The notes under the pieces were generated by a model. It was not told where the DNA came from. It saw only the letters and a program-made list of their open reading frames with translations, and made no database searches. The translations under genes were made by a program, and so were the position numbers. From Minisyncoccota bacterium (GTDB taxonomy: Bacteria > Patescibacteriota > Minisyncoccia > Phycocordibacterales > UBA9973), in assembly GCA_018062425.1 (NCBI GenBank), contig JAGOSH010000001.1, positions 16,039 to 80,038 on the forward strand: 64,000 nt of DNA. The letters run 5' to 3'. How positions within the stretch are numbered: position 1 is the first letter of the stretch; every line of letters begins with the position of its first letter. This document shows positions 5,118 through 37,797 of this stretch, one piece after another.

Positions 5118-5969
5118 ATGCAAAAACATAAAGCAAAAAAATCATTGGGGCAAAACTTTTTAAAGTCAGAACAAGCCTTGCGCGAGATAGTCAAAGCGGG
5201 GGACATCACCCAAAGTGACACGGTCCTTGAAATAGGACCAGGCAAAGGCGCACTAACCGAAAGACTCTTGGAAAGCTCGGGCCGTGTGATAGCCATAGAA
5301 AAAGACCGTGAACTGGTAACTTTTTTGAATGAGAAATTTAAAGAAGAAATAGAAAACAAAAAACTAATTTTGGTAGAAGGAGATATTTTAGAACTGACTG
5401 TAAGCGAGATGCTTCCAAGCTTTTCGAGTGGTGATGATGCAAAGCAGGATATCCCGAGAAAAGTTTCGGAAGCATCTCGCTATAAAATCATCGCCAACAT
5501 ACCATACAATATAACAGGAGCTATCTTGAAAAAGTTCCTAACAGAGGAAAAACAACCTGAATTAATGGTGCTTTTGGTCCAAAAGGAAGTCGCTGACCGG
5601 ATAATCGCCAGAGATAGTAAAGAAAGCCTGTTATCAATTTCAGTGAAAGTTTACGGCACCCCTACATATATAATGAAGGTTGGAGCCAGATATTTCAGCC
5701 CAGCCCCCAAAGTAGACTCTGCAGTAATCAAAATAAACAACATTTCTCGAGAATTTTTCAATAAAAACAAGATCGCCGAGGCACTGTTCTGGGAATTAGC
5801 TCGAGCTGGCTTCGCCCACAAGAGGAAAGTACTGTCCGGCAACCTGAGATCTTGGCGGTCCACGGTAAACTGGCAGAAACTTTTAACTGACTCAAAAGTT
5901 CCAAAGAATGCTCGTGCAGAGGATTTATCCCTTGATGATTGGATTTCCATTTTAAAACACTTGGAATAA
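5118..5969 (+). CDS. rsmA: 16S rRNA (adenine1518/1519-N6)-dimethyltransferase RsmA/KsgA
   Basis: The SLGQNFL hallmark, the SAM-binding LEIGPGKGALT motif and NIPYNI. The start is taken at ATG 5118 (MQKHKAKKSLGQNFL); the listed start is TTG. The gene contains an in-frame repeat insertion at 5404-5480. Confidence 0.85.
   Translation: MQKHKAKKSLGQNFLKSEQALREIVKAGDITQSDTVLEIGPGKGALTERLLESSGRVIAIEKDRELVTFLNEKFKEEIENKKLILVEGDILELTVSEMLPSFSSGDDAKQDIPRKVSEASRYKIIANIPYNITGAILKKFLTEEKQPELMVLLVQKEVADRIIARDSKESLLSISVKVYGTPTYIMKVGARYFSPAPKVDSAVIKINNISREFFNKNKIAEALFWELARAGFAHKRKVLSGNLRSWRSTVNWQKLLTDSKVPKNARAEDLSLDDWISILKHLE
5404..5480. repeat. copy 2 of the 46-bp repeat (5421-5466), flanked by the 13-bp inverted repeat GCGAGATGCTTCC / GGAAGCATCTCGC, inside the rsmA coding sequence
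   Basis: Seen directly. The rsmA reading frame stays open through it and the insertion encodes roughly SEMLPSFSSGDDAKQDIPRKVSEASRYK. The central octamer GGATATCC is a perfect palindrome. Confidence 0.7.
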
Positions 5970-6005
5970 AAACAAAGTGCTAGTATAATATTTAAATATA
6001 AAAAC

Positions 6006-6809
6006 ATGATTACCTTTCCTAAAAAATGGTTTTTTCTTTCTGCTGTTCTGCTTTTTATAGTAGTACCTGTTTTGTTTGTCTTGGCATTTATTACTGAAGT
6101 AAAAACTCTACCAGAAAGCAACATAGGACAAACTGAGGTTACTTTAAATGGTAGAATCACTGCAAGTGGAAACATCCCAGTACTTGGTCATTTTCGATAT
6201 ACTAAAACCGCTACTGCTAGTTGCATTAATATGCAAAACGAAACTAACACTCCCGACCAAACACTTGTTAATAACTCAGGAACTTATTTGTTTAGTCACA
6301 ATCTAACGGGCCTACAATCGGGAACCACTTATTATTACTGTGCCATCGGCACACAAGGCGGCGTAAGCCAATTCGGAAACGTTGAGAGTTTCATAACCAA
6401 CACAAACGGTGGGGGTAATAATGGGGGTCCGAGCTTTGGAGGGGGTTTCGGCTCTGGATCAAGTAATAGCTCTGTTACAACTACAAGTTTACAAAAACAA
6501 TTCTCTGGAATTATCATAAAATTAAAAGCAAAAGAAATCGAGGCTTTGGAAAACGCTAACTATGCGTGTGCTGTACCGGGCACATCAATCGAAATTAGGC
6601 CCAAAGGAATGAAAGGTTTCCAGCAAACAAGTTACATAATACCTGCTGCGACCATCTCGAAAACAAAACACGCTCCTTCCGTAAACCAACAAATAGTAGG
6701 TAAATACAGTGGAAAAACCTCGGTAACCTGTATTTTCCAAGGCGAACCCCCACTCGAAGAAACCGTTACTTTAAACACAATAAAGATGTATGGTAATTCT
6801 GCTCAGTAA
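6006..6809 (+). CDS. hypothetical membrane-anchored or secreted protein with a TxYYYCA motif domain
   Basis: N-terminal hydrophobic segment. The motif GTTYYYCAIG is shared with three or four repeats in the 10579-14076 protein. A Gly/Ser/Asn low-complexity linker follows. Confidence 0.5.
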   Translation: MITFPKKWFFLSAVLLFIVVPVLFVLAFITEVKTLPESNIGQTEVTLNGRITASGNIPVLGHFRYTKTATASCINMQNETNTPDQTLVNNSGTYLFSHNLTGLQSGTTYYYCAIGTQGGVSQFGNVESFITNTNGGGNNGGPSFGGGFGSGSSNSSVTTTSLQKQFSGIIIKLKAKEIEALENANYACAVPGTSIEIRPKGMKGFQQTSYIIPAATISKTKHAPSVNQQIVGKYSGKTSVTCIFQGEPPLEETVTLNTIKMYGNSAQ

Positions 6810-7753
6810 TGAAAAAATTTAAATTCAAAATTAAAATAAACCCTGCCTATAAAAAATACTTGCCGAGCAAGAGTTTTACTATATTTGTCGGAGGCGGTAT
6901 TACCCTGGTAATAATCGTTTCCGTTATTTTTGGTTTAGCTAAAGGTAAAGAAAACTTCTCCGCCCTCAAAACACAAGATTTGAAAACAGATGGTTCGACT
7001 TTGTCGGATTTGCTTCAAACCGACACCGACCTCGATGGAGTTTTGGACTGGGAAGAAGCCCTTTGGGGGACAGACAAAACCCTGAAAGCAACATTCAACG
7101 CAACCCCAGACGCGATTTATGTAAAACAAAAGAAAGACGCTTTAGCCACAGAAGACGATAGTGAAGGCTTAAATGAGACAGACAAGTTCGCGCGGTCATT
7201 TTTTGCTTCATATTTGGCACTCGAATCTGCTGGTGAAGACCCAGAGACGATAAAAAATCTAGGTCGTGCAGTAGGAGAGAAAATCGGTGACCCAAACTTG
7301 GTAGACGTTTTCGCCGAAGGGGATGCGAAGGTGGTGGTGGGTACTGATATCTCGGATGTAAAAAAATACTATACCGCAATCCAGGAAGTTTTCGACAAGT
7401 ACAGGGAAACAGGCATGGGTGACGAAATTGATATTGTAAACTCTGGACTCGTCAGTGCTCAAGATAAACTAGACTCAGTCAACAGGAACAAATTAGAACG
7501 CACGAGTAAAACCTACAAAGATTTCGCGGATGAAATGATGAAGATTAGCGTACCCCGAGAATACATAAGCGCCCACGTAAAAATGGCAAATAGTGCTTAT
7601 AATACAGGTGTTTCGGTCTTATCGATGACAAAAATAGTTGACGATCCGATTGTTGGGTTAGGCGGTATAACTCAATATCAAAAGTACAGCGAGGATTTTG
7701 TAAAAGCCGCAGGGGATTTAGACGAGGAATTAGCCCAGGTATTGGAAGAATAA
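6809..7753 (+). CDS. hypothetical membrane-anchored protein
   Basis: Its start overlaps the previous stop (TAATG). One N-terminal TM helix, a DTDLDGVLDWEE acidic motif, no catalytic motif. Confidence 0.5.
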   Translation: MKKFKFKIKINPAYKKYLPSKSFTIFVGGGITLVIIVSVIFGLAKGKENFSALKTQDLKTDGSTLSDLLQTDTDLDGVLDWEEALWGTDKTLKATFNATPDAIYVKQKKDALATEDDSEGLNETDKFARSFFASYLALESAGEDPETIKNLGRAVGEKIGDPNLVDVFAEGDAKVVVGTDISDVKKYYTAIQEVFDKYRETGMGDEIDIVNSGLVSAQDKLDSVNRNKLERTSKTYKDFADEMMKISVPREYISAHVKMANSAYNTGVSVLSMTKIVDDPIVGLGGITQYQKYSEDFVKAAGDLDEELAQVLEE

Positions 7754-7782
7754 GTTTTTTTTAAGTTATAATACTAAAATAG

Positions 7783-10566
7783 ATGCAAAGCCATATATTT
7801 AAAAATACAGTCACCGCGTTTCTGGTTATGCTTTTTGTGTTTTCGCCTGTTTTGGAAGTAAAAAAAGCAGCCGCTCAAACGGGGGGAGGTTATCCTACCA
7901 CTGGTTCTTATAGTTATGGTTCTGGTGGAACCTCTGGTGGACTAAGTGGCTATATAAAAGGACTCGGCCCAGCAATAACACAACTCCCTAAATGTAAGAA
8001 AAAGATTAAGGGTGCAATCAAAAGTCTGTTTGGTAAAAGCAAGGGCATACTCGCCAAAGAAGCATCTGGCACGTTGGGCACATCCTTGGGTGGAACTATT
8101 TCTCAATCAGCAGCCCAACAAAACACTATTCAAAACTACGACAAAGAAGCTAATGACAAGTTGAAAAAACAAGATACGAAATTGAGTCGTATAGACGAAG
8201 CTACTGGTTCTCTGGACGAAAATTCTTCTTGTCTCGACTCTATTGGTAAATTAATAATAGACAGAATGATCCAGAGAATCACCCTAGCTACAGTTGAGTG
8301 GATCAAAACCGGAAACAGTGGCGGTCCAGCTTTCGTCCAAGACCCTGGCAGGTTCTTGCGAGACATTGCCAAAGAAGAAATCCTTACTTTTGGACTAGAG
8401 CTTAACCTGGGCGCAGACTGTCAGGCTGTATTTTCTGGTAATGTTTTAGGTACAACAGGTAGCACCAACATAGACTCAACAGACGATTGTTTAAACCCTT
8501 ATGGTAAGTCTTGGTTCAAATATCAAGCTGAAGCTTTTAATAAAAAATTCAACGACAATGCACGTTATTCACTAAACGAACTCATCGCTGAAACAACCCC
8601 CCAATACACCGGGGCTTCATTCCATGCTAATTTCTCCTCTGGAGGATGGAACGCTTGGACAGCGCTTACATCTGTACCCGCAAACAACCCTGTCGGTTTC
8701 GGTCTTTTGGCGGAAACTGAATTATCGAAAAGGTTAGCTGGTGTTCAAAAATCAACAGCCGAACAAGTTCAAGACGCTCTCAAAGAATCAAATGGCTTCT
8801 TGGGGGACTATCGTTGTGCAGACCCAGAAGGAACCACCAAGGACCAGCACAAAGCAGCACTCGAATCTGGAGACACAGACCTGGCTTGTAAGAGATGGGA
8901 ATACGTAACCCCGGGTAGAGCTGTAGCTGAAGAAGCTCTAAAGATAAGTCATTTCCAAGAAAATAAACTAATTCGAGCAGACACCCTAAACGACGCAATG
9001 GCGGCAATAGTAGATGCTCTTATACAAAGATTCTCAAATGAGTTGTACGAGAAGGGATTAGCTGGTTTCTCGGATGAAGGTTCTGATGGTGGGTTGATAC
9101 TGAACGCTTACGCCATCGATGGTAGTTATGGTATCAACCAAGTTGAACAAGACTTCCCGGAATACTTGCAAGGTTCAGAATGGTTTAACGCACATTCTGG
9201 TTTCAATATAAGAACTGATTTAACTCAAGCAATCATAGACGAACAAAGGGTTTTTGCCGAGAAACTGCAAACTCAAAACGAGGTGCTGGAACGAGTAATT
9301 CAGTGGACTCAGGTACTTGATTATTGTATTCCGGGACCGAGTCCAAAAAAATACAGGGAGTTGAATGAGATAGATTTGTTCTCGGATACAGAAGAAGTCA
9401 CGCTGAAATTCGACTTGGCAGAGCTAGTGCTGTCGTTTGACCCAACTGGAATATTCTCCGGTATCGGCCAAGCTATTTTTGAAAAACAACACGAAAAAGA
9501 GGTCAAGAAGATAATTGCTACTCGTCTGGGCCTCATGTTCGATATACACATATATGGTGCTTTCGGATACACCGAACATGAAGACCAGCTAAATATCCAA
9601 CAAGACCAAATCTTGAACAAAGACGATATGGAAGGTTTGGGTAAAAACATCATTGCCTCCTACAAGGAAGTTATCCATAACACATACTTCAACGGTTCAA
9701 AGTCGGCTGCACCTATGCCAATAGTTACCAACGAAGCGCGGAATGAATTTGAAAGAATTGATGCCTACAAAGGAATCATTGAGGAAAACGATGATAGGGT
9801 TGGATTAATGAATGCCGTCGTACAAAGACTTGGTAGAATCAAAGAAACAATCGAAGACCTGGGACCACAGCCAGACCCTACTGATCCAGCTTTTGAGGAT
9901 TACGAAAACTCATTGAAGCCATTCATCGCAGAGTTCGGTCGTCTAACAGGTGAAATGGTGACAGGGGATGATATTGCTAAAGCCCATAAACTGCTACAAG
10001 AAATGGAAGATAAGGAGGTCTATATTCACGATGACCTTCTAACCGGTCCTGGTGGTTGCGAGGAAGAAATGATCAAATTATACGATGATGTTCCAGATGG
10101 TAGAGCTTTGTACAGTAAATTCTACCGAAGGCAGCCATATGGCGAACCTATTCCGTATCTTTACGGTTCCGGAGTAACAGGAAGCAATATCAGTCCTTAT
10201 GACCCAGGACCAAAGGTAGTGCTTAATCCACACGACAGAACTGCTTGGAGTGAACTATCAGTAAAGAACTGGAACCCAAATGATGGTTTCTTGTTTGGTA
10301 GTGTATATTGGAATTTCTGGGCTCGACCATACGATGGAGGTAACGCATATCAAGGAGATAACAAAACACACAACCCTCCTAATTTAGGGAAAATTAGAAA
10401 TAATTCTTGTCCCGAATTTATTGATGTTGTTTATTTCTCATTTCCAAACAGAGCTGACCTTGGTGGTCTAGAACCACAAGGTGCGCTGGGTTATTCAATA
10501 CCATATGGACCTAACAACTGTGGTGTAATAACTCGAAGATTAGAAGAGATGCTTGGTATGTGGTAG
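7783..10566 (+). CDS. large hypothetical secreted protein (927 aa)
   Basis: Signal peptide followed by a Gly/Ser/Thr-rich linker and a large domain of unknown function. Confidence 0.55.
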   Translation: MQSHIFKNTVTAFLVMLFVFSPVLEVKKAAAQTGGGYPTTGSYSYGSGGTSGGLSGYIKGLGPAITQLPKCKKKIKGAIKSLFGKSKGILAKEASGTLGTSLGGTISQSAAQQNTIQNYDKEANDKLKKQDTKLSRIDEATGSLDENSSCLDSIGKLIIDRMIQRITLATVEWIKTGNSGGPAFVQDPGRFLRDIAKEEILTFGLELNLGADCQAVFSGNVLGTTGSTNIDSTDDCLNPYGKSWFKYQAEAFNKKFNDNARYSLNELIAETTPQYTGASFHANFSSGGWNAWTALTSVPANNPVGFGLLAETELSKRLAGVQKSTAEQVQDALKESNGFLGDYRCADPEGTTKDQHKAALESGDTDLACKRWEYVTPGRAVAEEALKISHFQENKLIRADTLNDAMAAIVDALIQRFSNELYEKGLAGFSDEGSDGGLILNAYAIDGSYGINQVEQDFPEYLQGSEWFNAHSGFNIRTDLTQAIIDEQRVFAEKLQTQNEVLERVIQWTQVLDYCIPGPSPKKYRELNEIDLFSDTEEVTLKFDLAELVLSFDPTGIFSGIGQAIFEKQHEKEVKKIIATRLGLMFDIHIYGAFGYTEHEDQLNIQQDQILNKDDMEGLGKNIIASYKEVIHNTYFNGSKSAAPMPIVTNEARNEFERIDAYKGIIEENDDRVGLMNAVVQRLGRIKETIEDLGPQPDPTDPAFEDYENSLKPFIAEFGRLTGEMVTGDDIAKAHKLLQEMEDKEVYIHDDLLTGPGGCEEEMIKLYDDVPDGRALYSKFYRRQPYGEPIPYLYGSGVTGSNISPYDPGPKVVLNPHDRTAWSELSVKNWNPNDGFLFGSVYWNFWARPYDGGNAYQGDNKTHNPPNLGKIRNNSCPEFIDVVYFSFPNRADLGGLEPQGALGYSIPYGPNNCGVITRRLEEMLGMW

Positions 10567-10578
10567 AAAAACAAAAAT

Positions 10579-13500
10579 ATGAAAATTTTTAAAAAAGTAA
10601 AAATAGTTGTTTCCCTAATAATTGCCTTATCTGTTGTGCCGTCTGTTGCTCATGGTGCACTAGTTCTCAAAACCTTACAAGCTATCAACGTAACACAGAG
10701 CACAGCAACACTCCTTGCACGCGTTAGCGACCTGTCTTCCCCCGAGGGAACCATAGTAGACCTGTATGGTAAATTCCGGTATTCCACCAACGCAAACAAC
10801 GCAAACAAGACCTGTGAAACAATGCAAAGTGCTACCGAGGTGGCCGCTGATCCACCACCACTCACAGGACTCGATTTTTTTACTAATAGTGCTTACAACT
10901 TCCAAAAGAAAGACCTTGGTCCTCTGCAACAAAATACACAGTATTATTATTGTGCTGTGGTTTCCAGTACCGACGATTTCTCGAGCGGTGTTTTGTATGG
11001 AAACATGGTGACTTTTACACCAGAACCACCTCCAGACTTGATAGGTAGTGTTATAACAGTAGGCTCGAGTAACGTGGGGGAAAGTACTGCAACTGTTTCT
11101 GGACAAATCATAGAAGACAATCCTAACACTCCGGTGTTTGGTCGCTTTCGTTACTCAGAAAATTTCGGTCCTAGTTGTGGATCATTGCCCAACGCGCAAA
11201 CGAGCCTCAAGAGGAAAAAAACAGGGACCGGTAATTTTACCTTTAATGTTACCTTAACAGGACTCAAGGATGGAACAAAGTATTACTATTGTGCTGTGGG
11301 AGCGGACAATTCTGACTTTTTTGATGCGGTTTATGGAAATGTAAAAGATTTTACCACTCCGTTTAGTAGTAGCACTAACAGAATCGGCCCGGTTAAAACA
11401 CTGACTGCTACACAAATAGATGACACTGAGGTTACCCTTCGTGGCAATTACACTGCTGGTGGACCAGGATTTGCGTACTTTAGAGTGTCCACGGCAGACA
11501 TACCACCGGTATTCTGTAACGACATTTACGGTTCTGACATGATTGGTGTCACCTCAAACATACCAGACCCAATAGGGTATACTACTGGCGGAGATTTTGG
11601 TGTCCACGTAAACGGACTAGACCCAGAAACTGATTACTACTACTGTGCAGTAGTATCCAACGGTGCGTACGATCCAACAAAACCTAGATCTTTAAATGAA
11701 GCTCAGATTAAATACGGAGAAGTGAAAAAATTTAGAACTCTGCCTTGTGACAGCTGCAACAATACAACCATTACTACAAAAGGATCGGATGTAATAGATA
11801 GTACTAGCGCTAATCTGACAGGGACTTTCAAGTCTTCGCGTGCAGTGAATGTTTTTTTTGAGTATTCAAAGTTTGGAATTATTGATCCAACAAACCCACA
11901 ACCACCAACAGCGCTCTGGCAAGCAACTCCAGAGAAAAAATACGGTGCCAATTCTAGCGCTAACTACAACCAGCTGATAAAAGATTTAGAGAAGAACACA
12001 ACATACAGCTTTAGAGCTGTCGCTAAGGTGACCAACCCTGATACTTCAATAGAAATATTCTACGGTCAAACACTACAATTCACCACCAACAAATACAACG
12101 GGGTTACTGGTGAAGACATTGATGATGGAAACGGAATTGATGACCCTCCTATTATAGACCCTGGAGTGGGTGTAGGTCCTGGAGTAATAATAACCACAGG
12201 AGACGACAACTGCCCAGCGGGAACAACTGGTACGTTCCCTGCATGTACGCCGATCATAAACCCATTAGGTTGTTCAATTGGGTGGCTTGGAACCCCTCCA
12301 AACTGTTTCAACCCTGGACCTGGAGGAACCGGTACTGACCCAACAACCAAAACTCCCAAAGTTACCGTAACAGCTAACCCTGTATTTATTGACATTGGTG
12401 AGTCTTCGACTATCTCGTGGACATCATCCGCTGTTTCTACTTGTACTTTAAATGGTTACGAAGTTCCAACAAGTGGCTCTGCTGACACAGGAGGGTTGAA
12501 CAATACCACTTCTTATACAGTTGCATGTTCTGGAATCAATGGATCAGCTGCGGATACTGCAAGTGTTTTTGTAAATATCGACAATGGTAACGGTGGAGGA
12601 GATTTGATTTGGGTTGATGTAACAGCTTCACCTGTTTTCTTTCCACTAAATGCTTCAGTTACCATATCTTGGACATCAGGAGGAGCACAGTTTTGTGATA
12701 GTGGAGGACATGGAGAGGGAACCAGTGGATCGTTTGTTATACCATTAGTCAAAGCTAGTTCTTCTCACACAGTAACTTGCAGTGGTCAGGCTGGCACCGC
12801 CAGCGATACTGCATACATTGTATTGTACGACACCGGCATACCACCTCTACCTACAAACATGTGTGTTCCTACCACAGAAACCAGAAACTTGAACTGCTCT
12901 GCTGGTTATACTGGTTCTGTAAGTCAAACGAGAACATCTTCTTGTCCTACCTTATACGGAAATCCTGTTTGGGCCCCTTGGACAACAACCACTAACACCT
13001 GTACAGACCCGAATGGCAACACAGCCCCACCACCTCCACCACCTCCTCCTGGAGCGTGTTTCTCAAGCAACCAAACTAGACTATTGGCCTGTCCAGCTGG
13101 TTACACTGGTTCAATAAACCAAGCACGTACCTCTTCTTGTCCTACTGCAAACGGAAATCCTGTTTGGACTGACTGGGTAACCACTTCTGAAAATTGTAAA
13201 GACGCGAATGGTAATGGTTTACCTCCAACACCACCAGGCGGCACGCCACCTGGTCCAGGGAATCCTGGAGTTCCACCTAATCCAGCAAACCCTGGAGTTC
13301 CACCTCCACCAGGCGGACCAGGTCAGAACGGCAACCCACCACTAACACAAGACAATGACAATGATGATGATGGTGTAGGTAATCCGCACGACGATGACAC
13401 TGATGGTGATTGGGATCCAAACGATACTGACACCGATGACGATGGAGACGGTATTCCTGACTTTGTTGATGGTTCACCAAATGGTCCAGGCACCGGAGAC

Positions 13501-14076
13501 GACTTTGATGGGGGAGGGCTTCCAAACTCTTTGGATACAGACATGGATGGCGACGGAATTCCAAACTACTTAGACGGTGACACTGATGGAGACGGAGTAC
13601 CTAACGATATTGACCTAGACGATGATGGAGATGGAATTCCTGACTTGCTCGACCCAACGCCTCGAGGCACACATGGTGACCGAGGAAGTGATTTGTTGGT
13701 TCTGGGTCAAGAAGCTACCCCACCAAACGACGCAATAGTACGCTATCATGAAGGTATTGAGACTGTTTTCGCAAGGCAGATTCGCCGAAACACAGCTTTC
13801 GCCGAGAGGTATGGATATACTGGGGGAGACATGGTCAACTTTGCTTGGAACCTGGCGCACACATTTGCTAAATTCTATTTCGGATACATCAACGAATCAA
13901 ACCTGGAAGTTCGAGTTTCCGCACCAGATGTTTCTGCGTACGAATTACGACAAGTGTCCAACACACTGGTTGTGTATGAGTATTACAAAAATGTGATAGT
14001 TGATATCAGGAGTAAGACAGTGGAGTTTAAAAACAAGAATCCGTACGAATATTATTTCCGCAGAATTTTCCGATAA
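10579..14076 (+). CDS. giant surface/adhesin-like protein with YYYCA-motif repeats, Cys-rich tandem modules, polyproline and thrombospondin-type-3-like Ca-binding repeats
   Basis: Signal peptide. The motifs TQYYYCAVV, TKYYYCAVG and TDYYYCAVV. Two tandem ~55-aa Cys-rich modules (C..TR.L.C.AGYTGS..Q.RTSSCPT..GNPVW..W). PPPPPPPPG. Repeated DxDxDGxxD units (DTDGDGIPDFVDG, DTDMDGDGIPNYLDGDTDGDGVPNDIDLDDDGDGIPDLLD). Confidence 0.65.
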   Translation: MKIFKKVKIVVSLIIALSVVPSVAHGALVLKTLQAINVTQSTATLLARVSDLSSPEGTIVDLYGKFRYSTNANNANKTCETMQSATEVAADPPPLTGLDFFTNSAYNFQKKDLGPLQQNTQYYYCAVVSSTDDFSSGVLYGNMVTFTPEPPPDLIGSVITVGSSNVGESTATVSGQIIEDNPNTPVFGRFRYSENFGPSCGSLPNAQTSLKRKKTGTGNFTFNVTLTGLKDGTKYYYCAVGADNSDFFDAVYGNVKDFTTPFSSSTNRIGPVKTLTATQIDDTEVTLRGNYTAGGPGFAYFRVSTADIPPVFCNDIYGSDMIGVTSNIPDPIGYTTGGDFGVHVNGLDPETDYYYCAVVSNGAYDPTKPRSLNEAQIKYGEVKKFRTLPCDSCNNTTITTKGSDVIDSTSANLTGTFKSSRAVNVFFEYSKFGIIDPTNPQPPTALWQATPEKKYGANSSANYNQLIKDLEKNTTYSFRAVAKVTNPDTSIEIFYGQTLQFTTNKYNGVTGEDIDDGNGIDDPPIIDPGVGVGPGVIITTGDDNCPAGTTGTFPACTPIINPLGCSIGWLGTPPNCFNPGPGGTGTDPTTKTPKVTVTANPVFIDIGESSTISWTSSAVSTCTLNGYEVPTSGSADTGGLNNTTSYTVACSGINGSAADTASVFVNIDNGNGGGDLIWVDVTASPVFFPLNASVTISWTSGGAQFCDSGGHGEGTSGSFVIPLVKASSSHTVTCSGQAGTASDTAYIVLYDTGIPPLPTNMCVPTTETRNLNCSAGYTGSVSQTRTSSCPTLYGNPVWAPWTTTTNTCTDPNGNTAPPPPPPPPGACFSSNQTRLLACPAGYTGSINQARTSSCPTANGNPVWTDWVTTSENCKDANGNGLPPTPPGGTPPGPGNPGVPPNPANPGVPPPPGGPGQNGNPPLTQDNDNDDDGVGNPHDDDTDGDWDPNDTDTDDDGDGIPDFVDGSPNGPGTGDDFDGGGLPNSLDTDMDGDGIPNYLDGDTDGDGVPNDIDLDDDGDGIPDLLDPTPRGTHGDRGSDLLVLGQEATPPNDAIVRYHEGIETVFARQIRRNTAFAERYGYTGGDMVNFAWNLAHTFAKFYFGYINESNLEVRVSAPDVSAYELRQVSNTLVVYEYYKNVIVDIRSKTVEFKNKNPYEYYFRRIFR

Positions 14077-14139
14077 AAGTTTCCGTAAAATATAGTTTTT
14101 GTTTCCTTGGTTTGCTACAATGATTAAGTATTTGCATTA

Positions 14140-16461
14140 ATGAAAGCTATCAAGAAAAACTTTTGGTTAAAAGTCGCACTCGGAACATTATTCCTTGCTG
14201 TTTTTCTTGTGCCTGTAAGTTTCAAGAAAGAAAACAGCAATGATTTTATATCTCTCAAAACTAACACTGCTTACGCTGAAATAGAAAAATTAGTAATACT
14301 ACCAGTTGATGCAGCTGGCATCACGGCAACCGGTGTCAATTTGACTATTGAAGTTACTGGTCAACCTGGAACAGATGAGAAAATAAGTCTCACCCTTAAA
14401 ACCAAGTGGAGCCTAATAAACACCTGGGCTATTCCTGACACCATGATTGACAAGACAGCGGCGAGCCAGACAATAAACCTGCCACTTCAATACAACTTCG
14501 ACAAAGACACAATTTATCAAATTACTGTTTTTAAACCAGACAATTCTGTTATTTCCAACACTGTAGAATTCAAAGGGGATGGTAGTGCGATAGACAACAA
14601 TGGTGGACCGGCTGGTACCACCTCAACAGGACAGAACCCTATTCCACAGAAACCATCCCTTGATATTGGTTGTGGTTATCACCCAGAAACCTGGTTTACA
14701 AAATGCCCTGTACTTTTTTTGTATAATTTTATATACGAACCTATTTCTTATCTAACAACTCTAGCGGCAAAATTTCTAGACTTCTTTGTGTATTATTCGA
14801 TCAGCAGTGACGCATATCGTAGTGGTTTCGTAGAAAAAGCCTGGAGTGTTGTCCGAGACATTTCCAATATGTTTTTTATCATCGCGCTTCTGTATATTGC
14901 AATAAAAACAATACTGCAGATGAATACAAGCGATAACAAGAGAGCCATTGGATACATAATCATGATAGCCCTTTTAATAAACTTCAGTTTGTTTGCTACA
15001 CGAGTGGTGATAGATGCATCGAACATCTTGGCTCGGGTGTTTTATAACAACATCACTCCGTATGACGAAAACGGTACGGCAATTCCCCCAAATAGCAACA
15101 AACCAAAATCAGTATCTGTGGGATTGGTTCGAACTTTTGAACCACAAAAGGTGATTAGTGATCCAAAGACCAATACTGCCCAGTTTGCTATCGTAACAAT
15201 AATCTTCATAATACTTCTTGTTTACATGATTTTGATGTTTATCTCGATATCTATGCTTTTCCTGGGACGAGTTGCTGGACTTTGGATGGCGATGATGTTT
15301 TCACCTCTAGCCTTCACCTCAGTCGCTATGCCTTTCTCGATTCCTAAATTCAGTTTCAAAGAATGGAAGACTGACCTATTTAAGTTAGCTTTTATGGCGC
15401 CTATTTATGCTTTCTTCCTTTATGTCATTATTCTATTTGGAGGATTTTTGGAAGCAATTCAGTATGATACAGCCAATACTGCTTCTGGCCCGAACGGTTG
15501 GTTGGATGCTCTGATGAAAAACATAATTCCTTTTATGTTGATATTTGCATTACTCAAGGAGGCCAAATCTATAACCAAAGACTATGCTGGTAAAATGGGT
15601 GAGACGTTCAACAGCGCTGGAGCAGTGGTGGGTGGTTTGGCTCTGGGCGCAGCCACTGGAGGCTTGGCGATGGCTGGACGCGCATCGTTGGGTCGCGCTG
15701 GTTCTTGGATAGCTAGAAACACCAGTAAAGATACTTTTGGAGGCAGGGTTGCTAACAGGCTTGGTAGAAGAATGGGTACTGGTAGTTGGGATGCTCGTAA
15801 TGTAAAAGTTTTCGGTAAAGGACTCTCTAATACTGGTCTCAAAAATCTAAACACTGTTAGTACTCCAAAGGCAGGTGGTTGGGAAAAGATTCGCGAAGAT
15901 AAGAAACAAAAGAGATTAAAACGCGCAGAAGAAGTCAGTAAGGTTGGATACGGGGAAGGGGTGGCTAAGGATTTGCGTAAAGCTGAGTTAGATCTACACA
16001 CACTTCTAGACGAAAACAAATCGAAACTTGAATCTTTAGACAAAGACATTGCAGGGGCAAGGCAAAAACTGCAAGACGCAAAAACAGCAGATGATGGTAG
16101 CACAGCATCAAAATACAAAATAGCTAAATACAACGAGCAAATAAAGGTGTTTAATAAACAAAAAACAGCTCTTAGAAAAGGAGTAGATATTAAGATGGAT
16201 TATATTGATTTCGATGAAAATGATGCAGTTGTATCAAAAAGCATAGATGAAAAATACGCTAGCATTAAGGTTGGAGGAAAATCAATTCATGACTTAGAAA
16301 CAGATATTGTTCCTAAGGCTAGAAAAGCTGTGAGAGATAAAGAGAAAAAACGAAAGCTCGCTTACGCTGACAGACTAAGTATGCGATTCTGGTCGGATGG
16401 GGCGAAAGAAGTAGCACATAAAGTACGTTCAGGAGCTATCTACGAAAACAAAACAGCTTAA
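14140..16461 (+). CDS. polytopic membrane protein, VirB6/TrbL-like (putative T4SS channel component)
   Basis: Signal peptide, a ~180-aa extracellular domain, at least 5 TM helices, a Gly-rich segment GGLALGAATGGLAMAGRASLGRAG, then a Lys-rich coiled-coil tail. The architecture resembles Gram-positive VirB6 homologues (PrgH/TcpH). Assigned from topology and gene context only. Confidence 0.4.
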   Translation: MKAIKKNFWLKVALGTLFLAVFLVPVSFKKENSNDFISLKTNTAYAEIEKLVILPVDAAGITATGVNLTIEVTGQPGTDEKISLTLKTKWSLINTWAIPDTMIDKTAASQTINLPLQYNFDKDTIYQITVFKPDNSVISNTVEFKGDGSAIDNNGGPAGTTSTGQNPIPQKPSLDIGCGYHPETWFTKCPVLFLYNFIYEPISYLTTLAAKFLDFFVYYSISSDAYRSGFVEKAWSVVRDISNMFFIIALLYIAIKTILQMNTSDNKRAIGYIIMIALLINFSLFATRVVIDASNILARVFYNNITPYDENGTAIPPNSNKPKSVSVGLVRTFEPQKVISDPKTNTAQFAIVTIIFIILLVYMILMFISISMLFLGRVAGLWMAMMFSPLAFTSVAMPFSIPKFSFKEWKTDLFKLAFMAPIYAFFLYVIILFGGFLEAIQYDTANTASGPNGWLDALMKNIIPFMLIFALLKEAKSITKDYAGKMGETFNSAGAVVGGLALGAATGGLAMAGRASLGRAGSWIARNTSKDTFGGRVANRLGRRMGTGSWDARNVKVFGKGLSNTGLKNLNTVSTPKAGGWEKIREDKKQKRLKRAEEVSKVGYGEGVAKDLRKAELDLHTLLDENKSKLESLDKDIAGARQKLQDAKTADDGSTASKYKIAKYNEQIKVFNKQKTALRKGVDIKMDYIDFDENDAVVSKSIDEKYASIKVGGKSIHDLETDIVPKARKAVRDKEKKRKLAYADRLSMRFWSDGAKEVAHKVRSGAIYENKTA

Positions 16462-16470
16462 AACAAAAAC

Positions 16471-16950
16471 ATGACTGATAAATTAAAAGAAACAATTGAA
16501 GAAGAAGTAGTTAAAATGCCTAGAGAATTCCAGGAAGCTTTTACAGCGTCAAACTGGATACCTGTCTCCGAAGACATTGCGCGCAAATACAAACTGTATT
16601 TGGATGAAGAGATAAATAAATTCCAAGCAGAAGTTTTTTTGGTTCTATCTGGTGTTGTTCAATTCGAACTACTTTCTGTGAACATAGAAAACGAACTTGG
16701 TTTGAGCAAAGAAGAAGCAGAAAAAATAGAAGGGGAAGTACTTGAAAGAGTAATTTTTCCTTTTTCCAGTAACCTGGAATCCAAGGCAGAGTGGAAAATG
16801 GATATTAAGAATTCAAAATGGGATCAAAATCTTGATTTTATAACGTCAGGAGGGGACTACTCAGCTTTTCTGGATATTAAAAAAAGTTCCCCAGATCTAA
16901 CAACAACGGAAACAAAATCAGAAACAAACCAGAGCAATCCAAGTGTTTAA
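16471..16950 (+). CDS. hypothetical protein
   Basis: Intact ORF in the operon; no recognisable motif. Confidence 0.5.
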   Translation: MTDKLKETIEEEVVKMPREFQEAFTASNWIPVSEDIARKYKLYLDEEINKFQAEVFLVLSGVVQFELLSVNIENELGLSKEEAEKIEGEVLERVIFPFSSNLESKAEWKMDIKNSKWDQNLDFITSGGDYSAFLDIKKSSPDLTTTETKSETNQSNPSV

Positions 16951-16966
16951 GTGTTAAAATAATCTT

Positions 16967-17593
16967 ATGGATAATACAATCGATTTACTAAAAATGAAGA
17001 TAGAGCGAGCCCGAGAAGTACTACCACCGGAAACCTTGGTAGCGATTGATGCTGTGCCTTGGCGAGAAGTCATATATAACATGCGTGAAAGGAAAGGGTT
17101 CAACTTGACTCAACTAGAAGATCTGGAACTTGAGACTGAGTTGGTGCTTTGTGGTCTTGTTCCACCAGAGAAATATCCAAACGAACTAGCCACCAGGATG
17201 GGACTCAGCCTACCTCAGGTCACAGTATTGGTTGAAGAAATGAACGATTTGGTGTTCAAGAAAATCCGCGAGGAGTTAGTAAAAAAAATTAGTAGTAACA
17301 AGGCTTTGGGCTTGGATACCAAAACCCCAATACCTAGTAATAATTTTGTAAACACAGAAGACGCCAACCAAAGGACTGTGGATATCAAAGTAATAAAGCA
17401 AGCCATCGCTCGAAAAGAAGAGGATGAGAACAATTTGATCAACTCTATCTTGGGTCAGAAGCTCTCTGGTGCTCATATTTCTCCTCAAACCAAAACAGAG
17501 TACTCTTTGGGTAATATATCACGAGCAGAAGAACCAAAAACAACCGCAAAAAGTAGTTCTGTGGATCCTTATCGGATGAATCCAGGGGAATAA
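16967..17593 (+). CDS. hypothetical protein
   Basis: Intact ORF in the operon; no TM segment and no recognisable motif. Confidence 0.5.
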   Translation: MDNTIDLLKMKIERAREVLPPETLVAIDAVPWREVIYNMRERKGFNLTQLEDLELETELVLCGLVPPEKYPNELATRMGLSLPQVTVLVEEMNDLVFKKIREELVKKISSNKALGLDTKTPIPSNNFVNTEDANQRTVDIKVIKQAIARKEEDENNLINSILGQKLSGAHISPQTKTEYSLGNISRAEEPKTTAKSSSVDPYRMNPGE

Positions 17594-17651
17594 AACTCTT
17601 TTTTATTTAAAATATTGTATACTAATATAAGTCGCAAGACTGAATCTAATA

Positions 17652-18092
17652 ATGCAATTCAAGGTTCCACAATTCTTGGATATTGAGGATAAACTTTTTG
17701 GGCCTTTTACTTTCAGCGAGTTCGTATACTTGGCTGGAGGAGCAGGACTTTGTTATGTGGTATACAAAGCCCTGGGTCTTTTGCTTGGCTTGATACCCAT
17801 AGCGGCCATCGCCGGACTCGCGGTAGCTTTAGTGTTTTACAAACCCAACGACAAGCCCTTGGTCAACATGATCGAAGCTGGCATCAAATACGCAGCTCAA
17901 AGCAAACTGTACATCTGGAAGCGAAGAGTTGTGAAATCTACTACCAAAACTCCTGCTCCTAGCCACAGAAACCCACAAACCATAAACGTAAGCCCGGAAC
18001 ATACCATCAAATTAACTGGTAGCAAACTTCGAGATTTAGCTTGGAGTTTAGATATTTTAGACACAAAAAAAGAAGGCACCAATGGCAATTAA
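17652..18092 (+). CDS. small two-TM membrane protein, VirB3-like
   Basis: 146 aa with two adjacent hydrophobic helices, sitting immediately upstream of the VirB4 ORFs as in PrgI/VirB3 arrangements. Assigned from position and topology. Confidence 0.4.
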   Translation: MQFKVPQFLDIEDKLFGPFTFSEFVYLAGGAGLCYVVYKALGLLLGLIPIAAIAGLAVALVFYKPNDKPLVNMIEAGIKYAAQSKLYIWKRRVVKSTTKTPAPSHRNPQTINVSPEHTIKLTGSKLRDLAWSLDILDTKKEGTNGN

Positions 18093-18732
18093 CGCACGCA
18101 CAACTCAAGAGTTCATACCAATCAAAGAAGTCCGTGATGGTGTTGTTGTTTTAAAAGACGGCGGTCTTCGAGCTATCATTCTAGCGAACTCTATTAACCT
18201 TTCTTTGAAATCTGAAGATGAACAGAAGGCTACAATCATGCAGTTTCAATCACTTTTAAATACTTTGGATTTCCCGATCCAGATATCTGTCCAATCTCGT
18301 CGGCTAGACATACGTCCATATTTGCTTTTGCTTGAAAACAGAATGAAGGTTCAAACCGAACCCTTGCTCAAGCTCCAAACCAAAGAATATATGGAGTTTA
18401 TCAAGAACTTTACTGATACCGTCAGCATCATGACCAAAAACTTCTTCATTGTTGTACCTTTCACTCAAACAGCATTACCAACTAGCGGGGGTGGTGATTT
18501 CTTTAGTTTCTTTTCCAAAAAAACAAAGAGCGAACTAACGAAAGTAGCCGAGATGGATTTCGAAGAAAAGCGTTCTCAACTCGAACAGAGGGTGGGGGTA
18601 GTGGAGCAAGGGTTAGCGAGTTGTGGAATCAAATCAATCCAGTTAGGCAGTGAAGAAGTAGTGGAAGCCTTTTACAAAGTTTTTAACCCTGGTGAATCTC
18701 AAGGTAAAATTGACCTTGGAGAAATCAAATAA
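18082..18732 (+). CDS. VirB4/TrbE N-terminal domain, separate ORF (split gene or frameshift)
   Basis: FIPIKEVRDGVVVLKDGGLRAIILANSINLSLKSEDEQKATIMQFQSLLNTLDFPIQI matches the conserved N-terminus of Gram-positive conjugative VirB4 ATPases. It ends 2 nt before the ATPase ORF, which is in a different frame. Confidence 0.55.
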   Translation: MAINARTTQEFIPIKEVRDGVVVLKDGGLRAIILANSINLSLKSEDEQKATIMQFQSLLNTLDFPIQISVQSRRLDIRPYLLLLENRMKVQTEPLLKLQTKEYMEFIKNFTDTVSIMTKNFFIVVPFTQTALPTSGGGDFFSFFSKKTKSELTKVAEMDFEEKRSQLEQRVGVVEQGLASCGIKSIQLGSEEVVEAFYKVFNPGESQGKIDLGEIK

Positions 18733-18734
18733 CA

Positions 18735-20573
18735 ATGGGAATTTTTGATACAATTTTGGGTAAAAAGAAAGAAGAGATTAGTACAACTAATGCTTCTATT
18801 ATGCCGATCTTGCCGGAGGAAATCTATGAATCCGCGACCCTCGAATTACAAGACGTCATAGCACCCTCAGCGCTTAAAATCGAACCGAAATCCATAAACC
18901 TAGGGGAGAAGATCGCTCGTACATTTTTCATCATATCTTATCCTAGGTTTCTATCAGACAACTGGTTCTCGCCGATAGTGAATTTGGACAAAGTATTCGA
19001 TGTCGCTATTTTCGTCCACCCGATCGACACCTCACTAGCGCTACGTCAATTCCAAAAGAAAGTAGCCGAAGTGCAGAGCCAGATAAATGTCCGCGAATCC
19101 CGTGGAGTGGTGCGCGACCCCATGCTCGATACTGCGTACCAAGACCTAGAGTCTCTACGTGACAACCTAATTCAAGCTCAAGAAAAGCTGTTTGATGTTG
19201 GAATCTATATCACTATCTACGCAGACAACGAACTTGAACTCTATAAAATCGAAAATGAAATCAAGTCTATATTGGAATCAAAGTTGGTATATATAAAACC
19301 AGCACTTTTCCAACAAGAAGATGGATTTAAAAGTGTTATTCCGATAGGCACAGACTTTTTGAATATCAACCAGAAATTAAATTCAGAACCGCTTTCAAGT
19401 GTTTTCCCATTCGTTTCTTTCGACTTAACATCTGACAGAGGTATCCTCTACGGTATCAACCGCCACAACTCGTCTTTGGTGATCTTTGATCGTTTCTCTC
19501 TCGAGAACTATAACTCGGTTACTTTTGCCAAGTCAGGTAGTGGTAAAAGTTACGCCACCAAGCTCGAGATATTGCGGTCACTTATGTTCGACGTTGATGT
19601 TATCGTCATAGACCCGGAAAGGGAATATGAATTCTTGTCAGAAGCAGTCGGTGGTAGGTATTTCAACATCTCACTTTCATCCGACCACCACATCAACCCT
19701 TTTGATTTACCAATACCCAGAGAAGACGAAACTCCAGAAGATGTGCTACGTTCAAACATCATCAACCTGGTTGGCTTGTTTCGGTTAATGCTCGGAGGAT
19801 TAACCCCAGAAGAAGACGCTTTGGTTGACCGGGCAATCTCTGAGACTTATGCCATCAAAGATATAACCCCTAACTCCGACTTTGCCAATATTGAACCACC
19901 ACTACTATCAGACTTTGAAATGGTGCTCTCTGGTATGGAAGGGTCCGAATCCGTCGTACAACGTCTGGTTAAATACACTCGTGGATCTTGGTCTACTTTC
20001 ATTAATAGGCCTTCGAACGTTGATATCAACAAGAAGTTTGTAGTCTTTTCGGTGCGAGATATGGAAGACGAATTAAAACCGATCGCCATGTACATCGTAA
20101 CCCACTATATCTGGAATACTATTAGAAAAAACCTAAAGAAACGCTTGTTGGTGGTGGATGAGGCTTGGTGGATGATGAAATCAGAAGATACTGCTTCGTT
20201 TTTGTATTCGTTGGCCAAAAGAGGACGTAAATACTACTTGGGTTTGGCTACTATTACCCAGGACGCCGCAGACTTCATGAAGTCTCCATACGGAGTACCT
20301 ATTATCACCAACTCTTCAATTCAAATACTGCTGAAACAGTCTCCGAGTACTATTGAAATCCTCCAAAAGACATTTAACCTAACTGACGAAGAAAAATACT
20401 TGCTCTTGGAGTCTGGTGTAGGTGAAGGGATATTCTTTGCTGGCTTAAAACACGTTGCCATCAAGATAGTGGCATCTTATACCGAAGACCAAATCATCAC
20501 TTCAGATCCTTCACAAATATTATCAATCAAAAAATCGAAGGATGACCTCGAATCCCTCTCTGGTAAGTCTTAA
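18735..20573 (+). CDS. virB4: VirB4/TrbE/CagE-family type IV secretion ATPase (ATPase domain)
   Basis: Walker A FAKSGSGKSYATK, Walker B LLVVDEAWWMM (the DEAW signature), and ITQD near the C-terminus. Lengths 216+612 sum to about the typical VirB4 length. Confidence 0.8.
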   Translation: MGIFDTILGKKKEEISTTNASIMPILPEEIYESATLELQDVIAPSALKIEPKSINLGEKIARTFFIISYPRFLSDNWFSPIVNLDKVFDVAIFVHPIDTSLALRQFQKKVAEVQSQINVRESRGVVRDPMLDTAYQDLESLRDNLIQAQEKLFDVGIYITIYADNELELYKIENEIKSILESKLVYIKPALFQQEDGFKSVIPIGTDFLNINQKLNSEPLSSVFPFVSFDLTSDRGILYGINRHNSSLVIFDRFSLENYNSVTFAKSGSGKSYATKLEILRSLMFDVDVIVIDPEREYEFLSEAVGGRYFNISLSSDHHINPFDLPIPREDETPEDVLRSNIINLVGLFRLMLGGLTPEEDALVDRAISETYAIKDITPNSDFANIEPPLLSDFEMVLSGMEGSESVVQRLVKYTRGSWSTFINRPSNVDINKKFVVFSVRDMEDELKPIAMYIVTHYIWNTIRKNLKKRLLVVDEAWWMMKSEDTASFLYSLAKRGRKYYLGLATITQDAADFMKSPYGVPIITNSSIQILLKQSPSTIEILQKTFNLTDEEKYLLLESGVGEGIFFAGLKHVAIKIVASYTEDQIITSDPSQILSIKKSKDDLESLSGKS

Positions 20574-20596
20574 AAGATGATATAATAATTGAGAGT

Positions 20597-21601
20597 ATGT
20601 TAAAGTCACATTTTTTCTTAAAAACAATTCTTGCGATCGTTTTCTTAGCTTTGGTTTTCTTTCTGCCTTTTTCTACCACCCGAGCCCAAGTACAAGAAAC
20701 TGATGTTTCGATCGGAGTGAATCCAACCTACCCAAAACCAGGGGAGAGTGTGGTTGTGACTTTAAACAGTTTTACCGTCAAACTAGACAAAGCTTTTATT
20801 ATTTGGTCGGTGAACGGTGTTGAACGCGCCAATGGCGTCGGCAAGAAAAGTTTTTCTTTTAATCTCGATCCTTTCAGTTCAAAAACACAGGTTTCTGCTT
20901 CTGTATCAAACGTGGCTGGTGATACTATCACTAAAAATATTTTCATAAACTCAGTAGATGTGGATGTACTTTGGGAAGCGGTAGATTCGTATGTTCCACC
21001 TTTTTATCGCGGTAAAGCACTCGGTGTCCGTGAAGGTAATTTCAAAATTGTGGTTATTCCAAATATTATTTCCTCTCGTGGAAAACTAAGCCCAGGTAAC
21101 CTTTCTTATAACTGGAAAAAGGACGGGGCTGTTCAGGTTTCAGTCTCTGGTTTTGGTAAAGATTCTTTTGTTTACAAAAATAGTTACCTGGACGAAAGCA
21201 ACGAAATACAAGTCGAGATATCTGACGTTGAAAGCAAAACCAAAACTGGTAGCAAGATCACCATACCAACCCTATCTAAACCGGAAATATTTTTCTATCG
21301 CAGAGACCCAAAGCTCGGACTAGCCCTTGAAAAAACAATTGTAGACGGATACTCTCTAGGAGAAACTCCTGAAACTATCGTTGCAGTACCATACTTTTTC
21401 TCACCCAAAAACCTAAATTCTCAAATACTTAGTTTTAATTGGTCATCTGGAGGAGAGGGTATAAAACCAAACCGAAACAGAAACGAGGTCACAGTAGTTG
21501 CACCAAAAGGTAGCAGTGGTGGCACAGAGCTAAAAGTGGTGATTGAAAACAAAGGTAGTTTATTCCAAACTTTAGAGAAAAAATTAAATGTTACTTTTTA
21601 A
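20597..21601 (+). CDS. hypothetical secreted beta-rich protein
   Basis: Signal peptide followed by repeated Ig-like beta segments. Confidence 0.5.
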   Translation: MLKSHFFLKTILAIVFLALVFFLPFSTTRAQVQETDVSIGVNPTYPKPGESVVVTLNSFTVKLDKAFIIWSVNGVERANGVGKKSFSFNLDPFSSKTQVSASVSNVAGDTITKNIFINSVDVDVLWEAVDSYVPPFYRGKALGVREGNFKIVVIPNIISSRGKLSPGNLSYNWKKDGAVQVSVSGFGKDSFVYKNSYLDESNEIQVEISDVESKTKTGSKITIPTLSKPEIFFYRRDPKLGLALEKTIVDGYSLGETPETIVAVPYFFSPKNLNSQILSFNWSSGGEGIKPNRNRNEVTVVAPKGSSGGTELKVVIENKGSLFQTLEKKLNVTF

Positions 21602-22583: not shown

Positions 22584-22588
22584 AATTT

Positions 22589-27351: not shown

Positions 27352-27577
27352 CTGTTTATAAGTATGTGTATAATGTTTTATTCAGAGTTAATTTAAAGTG
27401 AGTAAACAAGGGTTTAGTTTAGGATTTCAAAAGTAGTGTGTATAAGTATGACAAGATATTAAGTACCAATGAAAAGCATTTTCCAAAAATACTTATACTG
27501 AGCTTCACAGTTTTAGTTATCCACTTATCAACAAGACTAATAGTATTAATAGATTAAATATATAAAATATAAACACA
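27352..27577. promoter_or_regulatory. candidate oriC (dnaA-dnaN intergenic) with a cluster of DnaA-box-like 9-mers
   Basis: TTATCCACT at 27517-27525, TTATCAACA at 27525-27533, and TGTGTATAA at 27365-27373 and 27437-27445. The region is very AT-rich. Confidence 0.55.
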
Positions 27578-37759: not shown

Positions 37760-37797
37760 TTTGCTTATATTATATAGCAACTTTTCAAAATGGTATA

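Follow-up and report, generated by a model that had tools for sequence, protein, structure and literature searches.

A large part of bacterial diversity belongs to the Patescibacteria, which live attached to host cells. In the one genetically tractable case, their type IV secretion system (T4SS) is essential for this host-attached lifestyle (PMC10633639). The T4SSs described in Patescibacteria are origin-proximal, relaxase-less and MPF_FATA-like, and PMC12102498, a 2025 survey of these clusters, reports no adhesins detected in them; it presents the T4SSs of Paceibacteria as chromosomal, relaxase-less and probably not conjugative, unlike the systems that carry PrgB. Here we analyzed a stretch of 64,000 nucleotides from a Minisyncoccota genome assembly (GCA_018062425.1, contig JAGOSH010000001.1, positions 16,039 to 80,038; hereafter the window), in which a T4SS cluster includes the gene of a large protein of 1165 amino acids; residue numbers below refer to this protein unless another open reading frame (ORF) is named. 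The protein belongs to a previously undescribed, Paceibacteria-specific family with an invariant architecture, consisting of a signal peptide, a core pair of fibronectin type III (Fn3) domains (Fn3_3 and Fn3_4 in this protein) and, at the C-terminus, an alpha/beta domain of 125 aa, to which lineages add variable cassettes as extra N-terminal Fn3 copies and as modules between the core pair and the C-terminal domain. With moderate confidence, we read it as a modular surface protein of an ultrasmall bacterium of the Paceibacteria, exported by Sec, disulfide-bonded and without enzymatic function, a calcium-stiffened adhesin or stalk that forms a constant part of the Paceibacteria T4SS cluster.

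An identical protein is deposited at NCBI (MBP6865981.1 / MBP9851102.1, on four contigs of Candidatus Paceibacterota), already named "fibronectin type III domain-containing protein", and a full-length homologue at 87% identity was found in two independent assemblies, so that the gene is not a pseudogene or a product of misassembly. It is under purifying selection, with an overall dN/dS of ~0.08 against two relatives. Homologues were confined to metagenome-assembled genomes (MAGs) of Paceibacteria / Nomurabacteria. Two short contigs labelled 'Simkania sp.' (L007, JAGXTH010000017.1) and 'Bacteroidota' (L024, JBAYGQ010000493.1) carry the large-protein gene with a neighbour and are probably mis-binned. 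A literature search on thrombospondin- or Fn3-bearing surface proteins in Candidate Phyla Radiation (CPR) bacteria returned nothing relevant.

We surveyed the family using 138 full-length representatives for architecture, 135 for cysteines, signal segments and LPxTG motifs, and 62 for a Pfam census. Three elements were near-universal: Fn3_3 (133 of 138), Fn3_4 (106) and the C-terminal domain (136). Fn3_3 showed nearly invariant columns in the family alignments and was 94% identical between the window protein and its closest relative, P0001. Members carried two Fn3 copies in 71 cases, three in 36, four in 20 and five in 2, and the stretch from Fn3_4 to the C-terminal domain measured 13 to 1188 aa, filled by Ig-like modules, He_PIG, CARDB, CBM_14 or G/N/T-rich repeats. 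Thrombospondin type 3 (TSP3) repeats occurred in ~10% of members, indicating that they are an accessory cassette. The window protein has every defining element of the family, namely the signal peptide, a PPVFCN-YYYCA Fn3 domain, a second Fn3 domain and the terminal 125-aa domain, and matched the family profile at 1e-58.

A signal-like N-terminal segment was present in 118 of the 135 members, and none had a second transmembrane segment or an LPxTG motif in the last 60 residues. The cysteine count was even in 132 of 135, as expected of an extracytoplasmic protein. With no other membrane segment and no LPxTG in the family, the C-terminal domain is the sole candidate for cell retention. The initial annotation, made from the window's sequence, had described a giant surface protein that combines several kinds of module. 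A secreted surface protein of many modules is supported here; only the word giant was generous, the mature form being ~120 kDa. That annotation did not include the signal peptide, the pair of beta-rich modules, the 4-Cys linker and the conserved C-terminal domain, all of which are listed with the other features in Table 1. It also did not mention the T4SS context, which together with the C-terminal domain is more informative than the features it did describe.

Table 1. Features of the large-protein gene and of the surrounding cluster (nucleotide positions within the window; AF2, AlphaFold2; pLDDT, predicted local distance difference test; HMM, hidden Markov model)
Feature	Position	Strand	Evidence
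Large-protein gene	10579-14076	+	Single intact ORF, 1165 aa
Sec-type signal peptide, aa 1-26 (...SVAHG/AL)	10579-10656	+	Sequence read; hydrophobic segment aa 9-27
Fn3 domain 1 (Fn3_1), aa 27-150, YYYCA at nt 10942	10657-11028	+	HMM of five copies; AF2 all-beta, pLDDT ~75-90
Fn3 domain 2 (Fn3_2), aa 153-262, YYYCA at nt 11281	11035-11364	+	PF16656 best stretch aa 207-260, 3.9e-11
Fn3 domain 3 (Fn3_3), aa 268-389, family core, PPVFCNDIYGSDM insert, YYYCA at nt 11635	11380-11745	+	In 133/138 representatives
CxxC junction LPCDSC, Cys 390/393, between Fn3_3 and Fn3_4	11746-11757	+	Cys positions; PCxTC in 37/138 representatives
Fn3 domain 4 (Fn3_4), aa 394-505, family core, degenerate TTYSFRAV, both Cys lost	11758-12093	+	HMM 8e-39; 106/138 representatives
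Linker with 4-Cys CPAGTTGTFPAC...C...C segment (CPxGxxGxxPxC type), aa 545-576	12094-12354	+	Cys positions; low pLDDT
Pair of beta-rich modules of ~75 aa, aa 593-668 and 676-751, a Cys pair in each	12355-12831	+	blastp 45% mutual identity, 5e-14
4-Cys module A, aa 762-814	12862-13020	+	AF2 three short strands, pLDDT ~60-80
Polyproline spacer (P9), aa 816-824	13024-13050	+	Sequence read
4-Cys module B, aa 827-879	13057-13215	+	Duplicate of module A
Pro/Gly-rich spacer, aa 881-922, with 27-nt x2.2 repeat at 13246-13305	13219-13344	+	Repeat scan, AF2
Six thrombospondin type 3-like repeats DxDxDGxxD, aa 927-1022	13345-13668	+	Motif scan, Pfam TSP_3
Family-defining C-terminal domain, aa 1031-1165	13669-14076	+	Profile search, AF2
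Co-directional T4SS cluster including the large-protein gene	6006-23941	+	Pfam/NCBIfam and synteny
Fn3 (YYYCA) domain of the small cluster-opening protein, its aa 28-131	6087-6398	+	blastp, HMM

The element that sets the family apart is its C-terminal domain of ~125 aa. A profile built from 16 sequences retrieved 431 clusters (50% identity) among 1.84 billion representatives, and in essentially all of the 150 matches listed the domain lay 0-7 residues from the C-terminus, in proteins of ~390-1940 aa. AF2 predicted three helices followed by five strands with a pLDDT of 92.6. The invariant residues read EGxE...GY...GY...RV...AY...YE...YEY, and the domain ends in a basic tail, YEYYF-K/R-K/R. The C-terminal 135 residues had no relative in Pfam, NCBIfam, PHROG or PDB sequences, the best PDB sequence match reaching only E 0.012 (agmatine deiminases). 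Foldseek gave best E-values of 0.35 in PDB and 0.09 in BFVD, with TM-scores below 0.3. Ketosteroid-isomerase entries in that search prompted us to consider an NTF2 or VirB8-like fold, which we rejected at TM-scores of 0.12-0.2 and a root-mean-square deviation of ~13 Å.

Because the domain is so strictly terminal and its tail is basic, it could alternatively be a C-terminal translocation signal comparable to XVIPCD or BID, which would make the protein a substrate of the T4SS. T4SS translocation signals are typically C-terminal, so the position itself fits. However, the Sec signal peptide and the paired cysteines imply Sec export and oxidative folding outside the cytoplasm, the domain showed no sequence or Foldseek similarity to solved structures, XVIPCD and BID entries included, and the window ORFs scanned (at least 250 aa) included no coupling protein. 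Paralogous copies also occur at internal positions. One is a diverged copy (E 1e-13) at nt 733-1080 within ORF 1-2115 (+), a 5'-truncated ORF upstream of uvrD that encodes a large K/E-rich protein, whose 1044-aa homologue P0165 has hydrophobic segments further upstream; in the proteins P0160 and P0161, a domain of this type stands just behind hydrophobic segments. On this evidence, we consider a role as a translocated substrate improbable.

The window places the large-protein gene within a T4SS cluster in the order small267, p314, p927, large protein, polytopic 773-aa protein, p159, p208, PrgI, TraC-like, VirB4, p334, pilin-YkuD fusion and p450, with 12 nt between p927 and the large-protein gene. 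Across ~25 related loci, gene order and strand were kept wherever the contig extends, at 30-90% identity (identical order in ~25 species-level loci at 30-60% protein identity), in the order uvrD, rsmA, (small protein), p314, p927, large protein, polytopic ~800-aa protein, ..., PrgI, TraC-like, VirB4, p334, pilin fusion and p450. The large-protein gene occupied the same slot and strand in the relatives' loci L001-L006 and in 27 loci representing GTDB species, where flanks exist. PrgI/VirB3 was identified by PF12666 (28.5 bits, cut-off 27) and the Gram-positive (CD1110-type) VirB4 ATPase by NF045971 (2.5e-110; 369.9 bits, cut-off 325). Records of the related loci give PF26593 for orthologues of the TraC-like gene, whose window copy had no Pfam match. 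The pilin fusion (21588-22583, +) combines a VirB2-like T4SS_pilin domain (its aa 79-138; 27.6 bits, cut-off 26.6) with a YkuD L,D-transpeptidase domain (its aa 243-330). A scan of the ten largest downstream ORFs yielded no relaxase and no coupling protein. About 2 kb beyond the last cluster gene lie dnaA (26005-27351) and dnaN, together within 26005-28675 (+), so that the cluster adjoins the presumed replication origin, a placement that PMC12102498 also reports in Paceibacteria. The cluster is thus a chromosomal, ori-proximal, relaxase-less, MPF_FATA-like T4SS of the kind described in Patescibacteria.

The rigid order of these loci can also be explained without any functional tie to secretion. 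The large protein might be a general envelope or surface-coat protein, S-layer- or wall-associated, that was simply inherited beside the T4SS genes in these very small, highly syntenic genomes. The cluster is just as fixed beside uvrD, rsmA and dnaA, gene order being generally frozen here, and a domain of the C-terminal type is also present in another large protein, encoded away from the T4SS operon. Moreover, Fn3, Ig-like and TSP3 modules are widespread in bacterial envelope proteins. We nevertheless regard this explanation as unlikely, since the gene lies inside a tight co-directional block, between the cluster-specific p927 and 773-aa protein, in an order held at 30-50% identity across ~25 species, and since no SLH, LysM, peptidoglycan-binding or other wall-binding family was found with Pfam or NCBIfam.

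Alternatively, the protein could be an integral extracellular structure of the T4SS machine, for instance a stalk that spans the wall, a pilus base or a cap, with the variable middle as tolerated decoration. Its constant presence and the conservation of both ends would suit such a part. In its favour, the monoderm patescibacterial T4SSs are also described in PMC12102498 and PMC12857230 as having no recognisable VirB8, VirB9 or VirB10 equivalents and as unusually encoding VirB2-like pilins. We find this reading doubtful, and slightly more so than an envelope protein without a tie to secretion, because core machine parts are usually much better conserved, as VirB4 is, than a family whose total length and middle segment vary as widely as given above, and because no similarity to known T4SS structural subunits was detected by Pfam, NCBIfam or Foldseek. 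The narrower suggestion of the initial annotation, a pilus-tip or fibre subunit, was not borne out either: the protein has no LPxTG and no pilin or VirB5 signature, and its predicted structure is beta-rich and modular.

The N-terminal part of the large protein consists of Fn3 domains. The initial annotation had drawn attention to a YYYCA motif recurring three or four times in this protein and once more in the small protein that opens the cluster (ORF 6006-6809), and had taken it to suggest a family of related surface modules. The motif occurs exactly three times in the large protein (aa 122, 235 and 353), a fourth homologous domain has a degenerate version at aa 474, and the small ORF has one copy (its aa 109, nt 6330-6344); these four exact copies are all that a six-frame translation of the window contains, and ~9e-5 would be expected from composition in the large protein. 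The motifs lie within homologous domains of ~110-120 aa (inter-domain blastp 1e-9 to 0.06). The large protein matched PF16656 (Pur_ac_phosph_N) at 3.9e-11 (43.8 bits, Pfam gathering cut-off 30). The small ORF reached 6.5e-5 (23.9 bits, under the same cut-off) and matched Fn3_2 by blastp at 7e-17, confirming that the two proteins share an Fn3-type module. Within the Pfam census, PF16656 was found in 41 of 62 members, canonical fn3 in 16 and PhoD_N in 8. AF2 predicted an all-beta structure for aa 27-505 (pLDDT ~70-90), and the top PDB matches in Foldseek were tandem Fn3 arrays (titin/MyBP-C, fibronectin FnIII 4-7 and RPTPmu; E 1e-13 to 1e-9, probability 1.00).

Accordingly, YYYCA is the F strand of an ordinary Fn3 domain, comprising the Y-x-Y tyrosine corner and a cysteine that pairs with an upstream one. 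Among the Fn3 domains of the family, both cysteines were present in 142 and neither in 71, while the F-strand cysteine alone occurred in none and the upstream cysteine alone in 12 (Fisher p = 2e-46), which argues for an intradomain disulfide. The YYYCA segment is therefore not a new module family. The initial annotation had made its novelty dependent on the segment not being a known domain, and the PF16656 match above the cut-off identifies it as a common, characterised one; the motif on its own is an ordinary Fn3 signature and of no special interest. The Fn3 domain of the small ORF was present only in the window and its three closest relatives, L004, L005 and L006, and elsewhere just the C-terminal ~100 residues of the small protein (its aa 161-267) were conserved. 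The domain is thus a recent lineage-specific gain, most similar to Fn3_2 of the large protein, and does not represent an ancestral condition from which a module family arose.

Since the best Pfam matches are Pur_ac_phosph_N and PhoD_N, we also considered whether the protein is an enzyme akin to phosphatases of the purple acid or PhoD type. What both models cover is just the N-terminal Fn3-like domain, which is non-catalytic, and no metallophosphatase or other catalytic domain was found in the large protein or in the 62 family members, making this the least credible of the explanations considered here, with next to no probability.

The LPCDSC junction overlaps the final residues of the Fn3_3 part. 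The modules between the core Fn3 pair and the C-terminal domain belong to the variable part of the family. The 4-Cys linker segment was common to only 7 of the 138 representatives. The two ~75-aa beta-rich modules occurred in ~25 of 138 and had no significant Pfam match; AF2 gave them a pLDDT below 50, and they may have an Ig-like fold. The 4-Cys modules A and B are true duplicates, as the initial annotation had noted. They are not near-identical, however, nor encoded by near-repeated DNA, having 58% identity in protein and 69% in DNA, and repeat searches of the window, including Tandem Repeats Finder, detected no long exact DNA repeat and no array at these modules. A profile of the module had no further match among 5.8 billion proteins or in PDB beyond the window protein and its relatives P0001, P0003 and P0005. 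We considered a thrombospondin type 1 (TSR)-like reading for the module's CSxGxxGxxxQxRxxxC...W..W pattern; Pfam TSP_1 gave no match, and we do not claim it.

Copy number of the 4-Cys module does vary among relatives, from none in P0002, P0004 and P0006 through two in the window, P0001 and P0003 to three in P0005, so that modules do expand and contract in this lineage, as the initial annotation had proposed. In P0005 (locus L001, 12179-12699), three identical modules are encoded by a tandem array of 174 nt x 3.0 that is perfect, at 100% identity. This array, from a related Paceibacteria MAG, was produced either by very recent amplification or by the assembly. The second half of the idea, that the DNA copies in the window themselves serve as a recombination substrate, does not hold, because the window's two modules are old and too diverged for this purpose.

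The position given in the initial annotation for the DxDxDGxxD repeats, and their assignment to the thrombospondin type 3 class, agree with our results. A motif scan located six copies starting from nt 13357 to 13618, the last ending near 13644, and Pfam TSP_3 (PF02412) matched the sub-segment scanned alone at 4.5e-6 (26.7 bits, cut-off 25); the whole-protein scan did not report TSP_3. The segment has an isoelectric point of 4.05 and its DNA includes a 74-nt direct repeat family, D1. Judging from the sequence, it may bind Ca2+.

Taken as a surface adhesin or stalk, the protein could work as follows. Its C-terminal domain would dock either to the envelope of the cell or to some extracellular T4SS partner, for which p314, p927, the polytopic 773-aa protein and the VirB2-like pilin are candidates. 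The acidic TSP3 repeats, with Ca2+ bound, the two kinds of spacer (polyproline and Pro/Gly) and the small modules held by disulfides would combine into an extended, stiff stalk, presenting the N-terminal Fn3 domains distally, where they may touch the host cell. The large protein would thereby correspond in role to the PrgB-type adhesins of Gram-positive conjugation systems. The distal, host-facing placement of the N-terminal Fn3 domains is suggested by a gradient of divergence, since identity to P0001 was 72% in Fn3_1 and 71% in Fn3_2, compared with 92-98% in the C-terminal two thirds. Fast divergence likewise marked further cluster components predicted to lie at the surface, as the pilin fusion was 60% and the 773-aa protein 66% identical to relatives (65-66% for the latter among close relatives), compared with 99% for VirB4.

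Several points weigh against the adhesin or stalk interpretation. Conserved synteny is the single line of evidence that ties the large protein to the T4SS, and it is weakened by frozen gene order, since the cluster of these small genomes is equally fixed beside uvrD and rsmA, two genes that surely have no functional relation to it. The internal position of the domain in K/E-rich membrane proteins (ORF 1-2115, P0160 and P0161) limits confidence in an extracellular docking role. The middle modules are predicted to fold with low confidence only. Finally, dS was saturated or undefined in several domains when dN/dS was computed per domain; the fast divergence of Fn3_1 and Fn3_2 thus cannot be tied to positive selection, and we make no such claim. 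A more specific form of the adhesin or stalk interpretation is that the C-terminal domain is an undescribed envelope- or T4SS-docking module that defines the missing host-contact component of an essential, non-conjugative Paceibacteria T4SS, with swappable N-terminal Fn3 domains and middle cassettes setting host specificity. We put this forward tentatively, as a possibility that is still on the unlikely side.

No Pfam or NCBIfam match was obtained for p314, p927, the 773-aa protein, p159 or p208, and PHROGs had no match for the large protein or five of its neighbours. The 773-aa protein (14140-16461, +) has an N-terminal hydrophobic segment, an extracellular-looking region of ~200 aa, five more transmembrane segments and a long charged tail. 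It occupies the slot expected for a VirB6/PrgH-like subunit, and we considered it as VirB6 and set this aside for lack of any Pfam or NCBIfam match. By eye, the membrane-anchored p314 (314 aa, 6809-7753, +) shows a single TSP3/dockerin-like acidic motif, DTDLDGVLDWEE, at its aa ~70-85, past the transmembrane segment. In the L006 orthologue of the pilin fusion (20785-21750; 53-60% identical), NlpC/P60 and Amidase_5 stand in place of YkuD; it seems that one cell-wall-active domain was exchanged for another on a pilin scaffold. At 36062-38065 (-), ~12 kb from the T4SS cluster, the window also encodes a secretion ATPase of the T2SSE family (PF00437, 4.5e-110). Promoter and terminator scans of the region gave counts not above those in shuffled sequence, the only notable promoter-like site being TTGGAA-17-TATAAT at 5961-5989, immediately 5' of ORF 6006-6809. 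Rfam and tRNA scans returned three tRNAs only, distant from the locus.

The main value of these results lies in a Paceibacteria-specific family with an unmatched C-terminal domain and a constant slot in a poorly understood, probably essential secretion system. Always in the cluster, predicted to be exported, and combining conserved ends with a hypervariable middle, the family offers a handle on how the Paceibacteria T4SS contacts the host. It could be used in co-folding and pull-down experiments, as a target of antibodies in cryo-electron tomography, and as a metagenomic marker of host-range variation.

Several known systems resemble parts of this protein. Its Fn3 domains share the beta-sandwich prediction, the profile match and the F-strand tyrosine corner with the Fn3 subtype at the N-terminus of purple acid phosphatases (PF16656; also PF00041 and PF16655). 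They differ from that subtype in that most copies have an extra conserved cysteine pair (F strand and upstream loop), the core Fn3_3 has the conserved PPVFCNDIYGSDM insert, and no phosphatase catalytic domain follows. The six DxDxDGxxDxxD repeats of the calcium-binding type, recognised by Pfam TSP_3, are shared with bacterial OmpA-like TSP3 proteins and with eukaryotic thrombospondin and COMP. Unlike the former, the large protein had no OmpA C-terminal domain match in Pfam or NCBIfam, and unlike animal thrombospondins, its repeats have no internal cysteines.

As a large, Sec-exported, modular surface protein encoded in a monoderm T4SS cluster, the protein resembles the PrgB/aggregation-substance adhesins (pCF10; MPF_FATA), and a role in cell-cell contact is proposed here by analogy. 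The large protein has neither sequence nor domain similarity to them, nor a PrgB/GbpC-type domain or LPxTG, its novel C-terminal domain being the proposed anchor. No test placed it among the PrgB-type adhesins, and the likeness is one of role. Helicobacter CagY, a VirB10 orthologue, is not homologous and is a membrane-spanning core component of a diderm system, and the repeats in the window, at 69% DNA identity, have diverged. What CagY shares with the large protein is membership in a T4SS cluster, conserved ends and a repeat-rich middle that changes module number by recombination, a likeness seen in the perfect 174-nt x3 Cys-module array in the L001 relative. The C-terminal domain of type IX secretion system (T9SS) substrates offers a further analogy, and only that: the domain described here has three helices and five strands instead of a beta-sandwich, no sequence similarity, and a monoderm background without a T9SS. 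In both cases, however, a conserved domain of ~100-125 aa marks the extreme C-terminus of diverse secreted modular proteins within one lineage.

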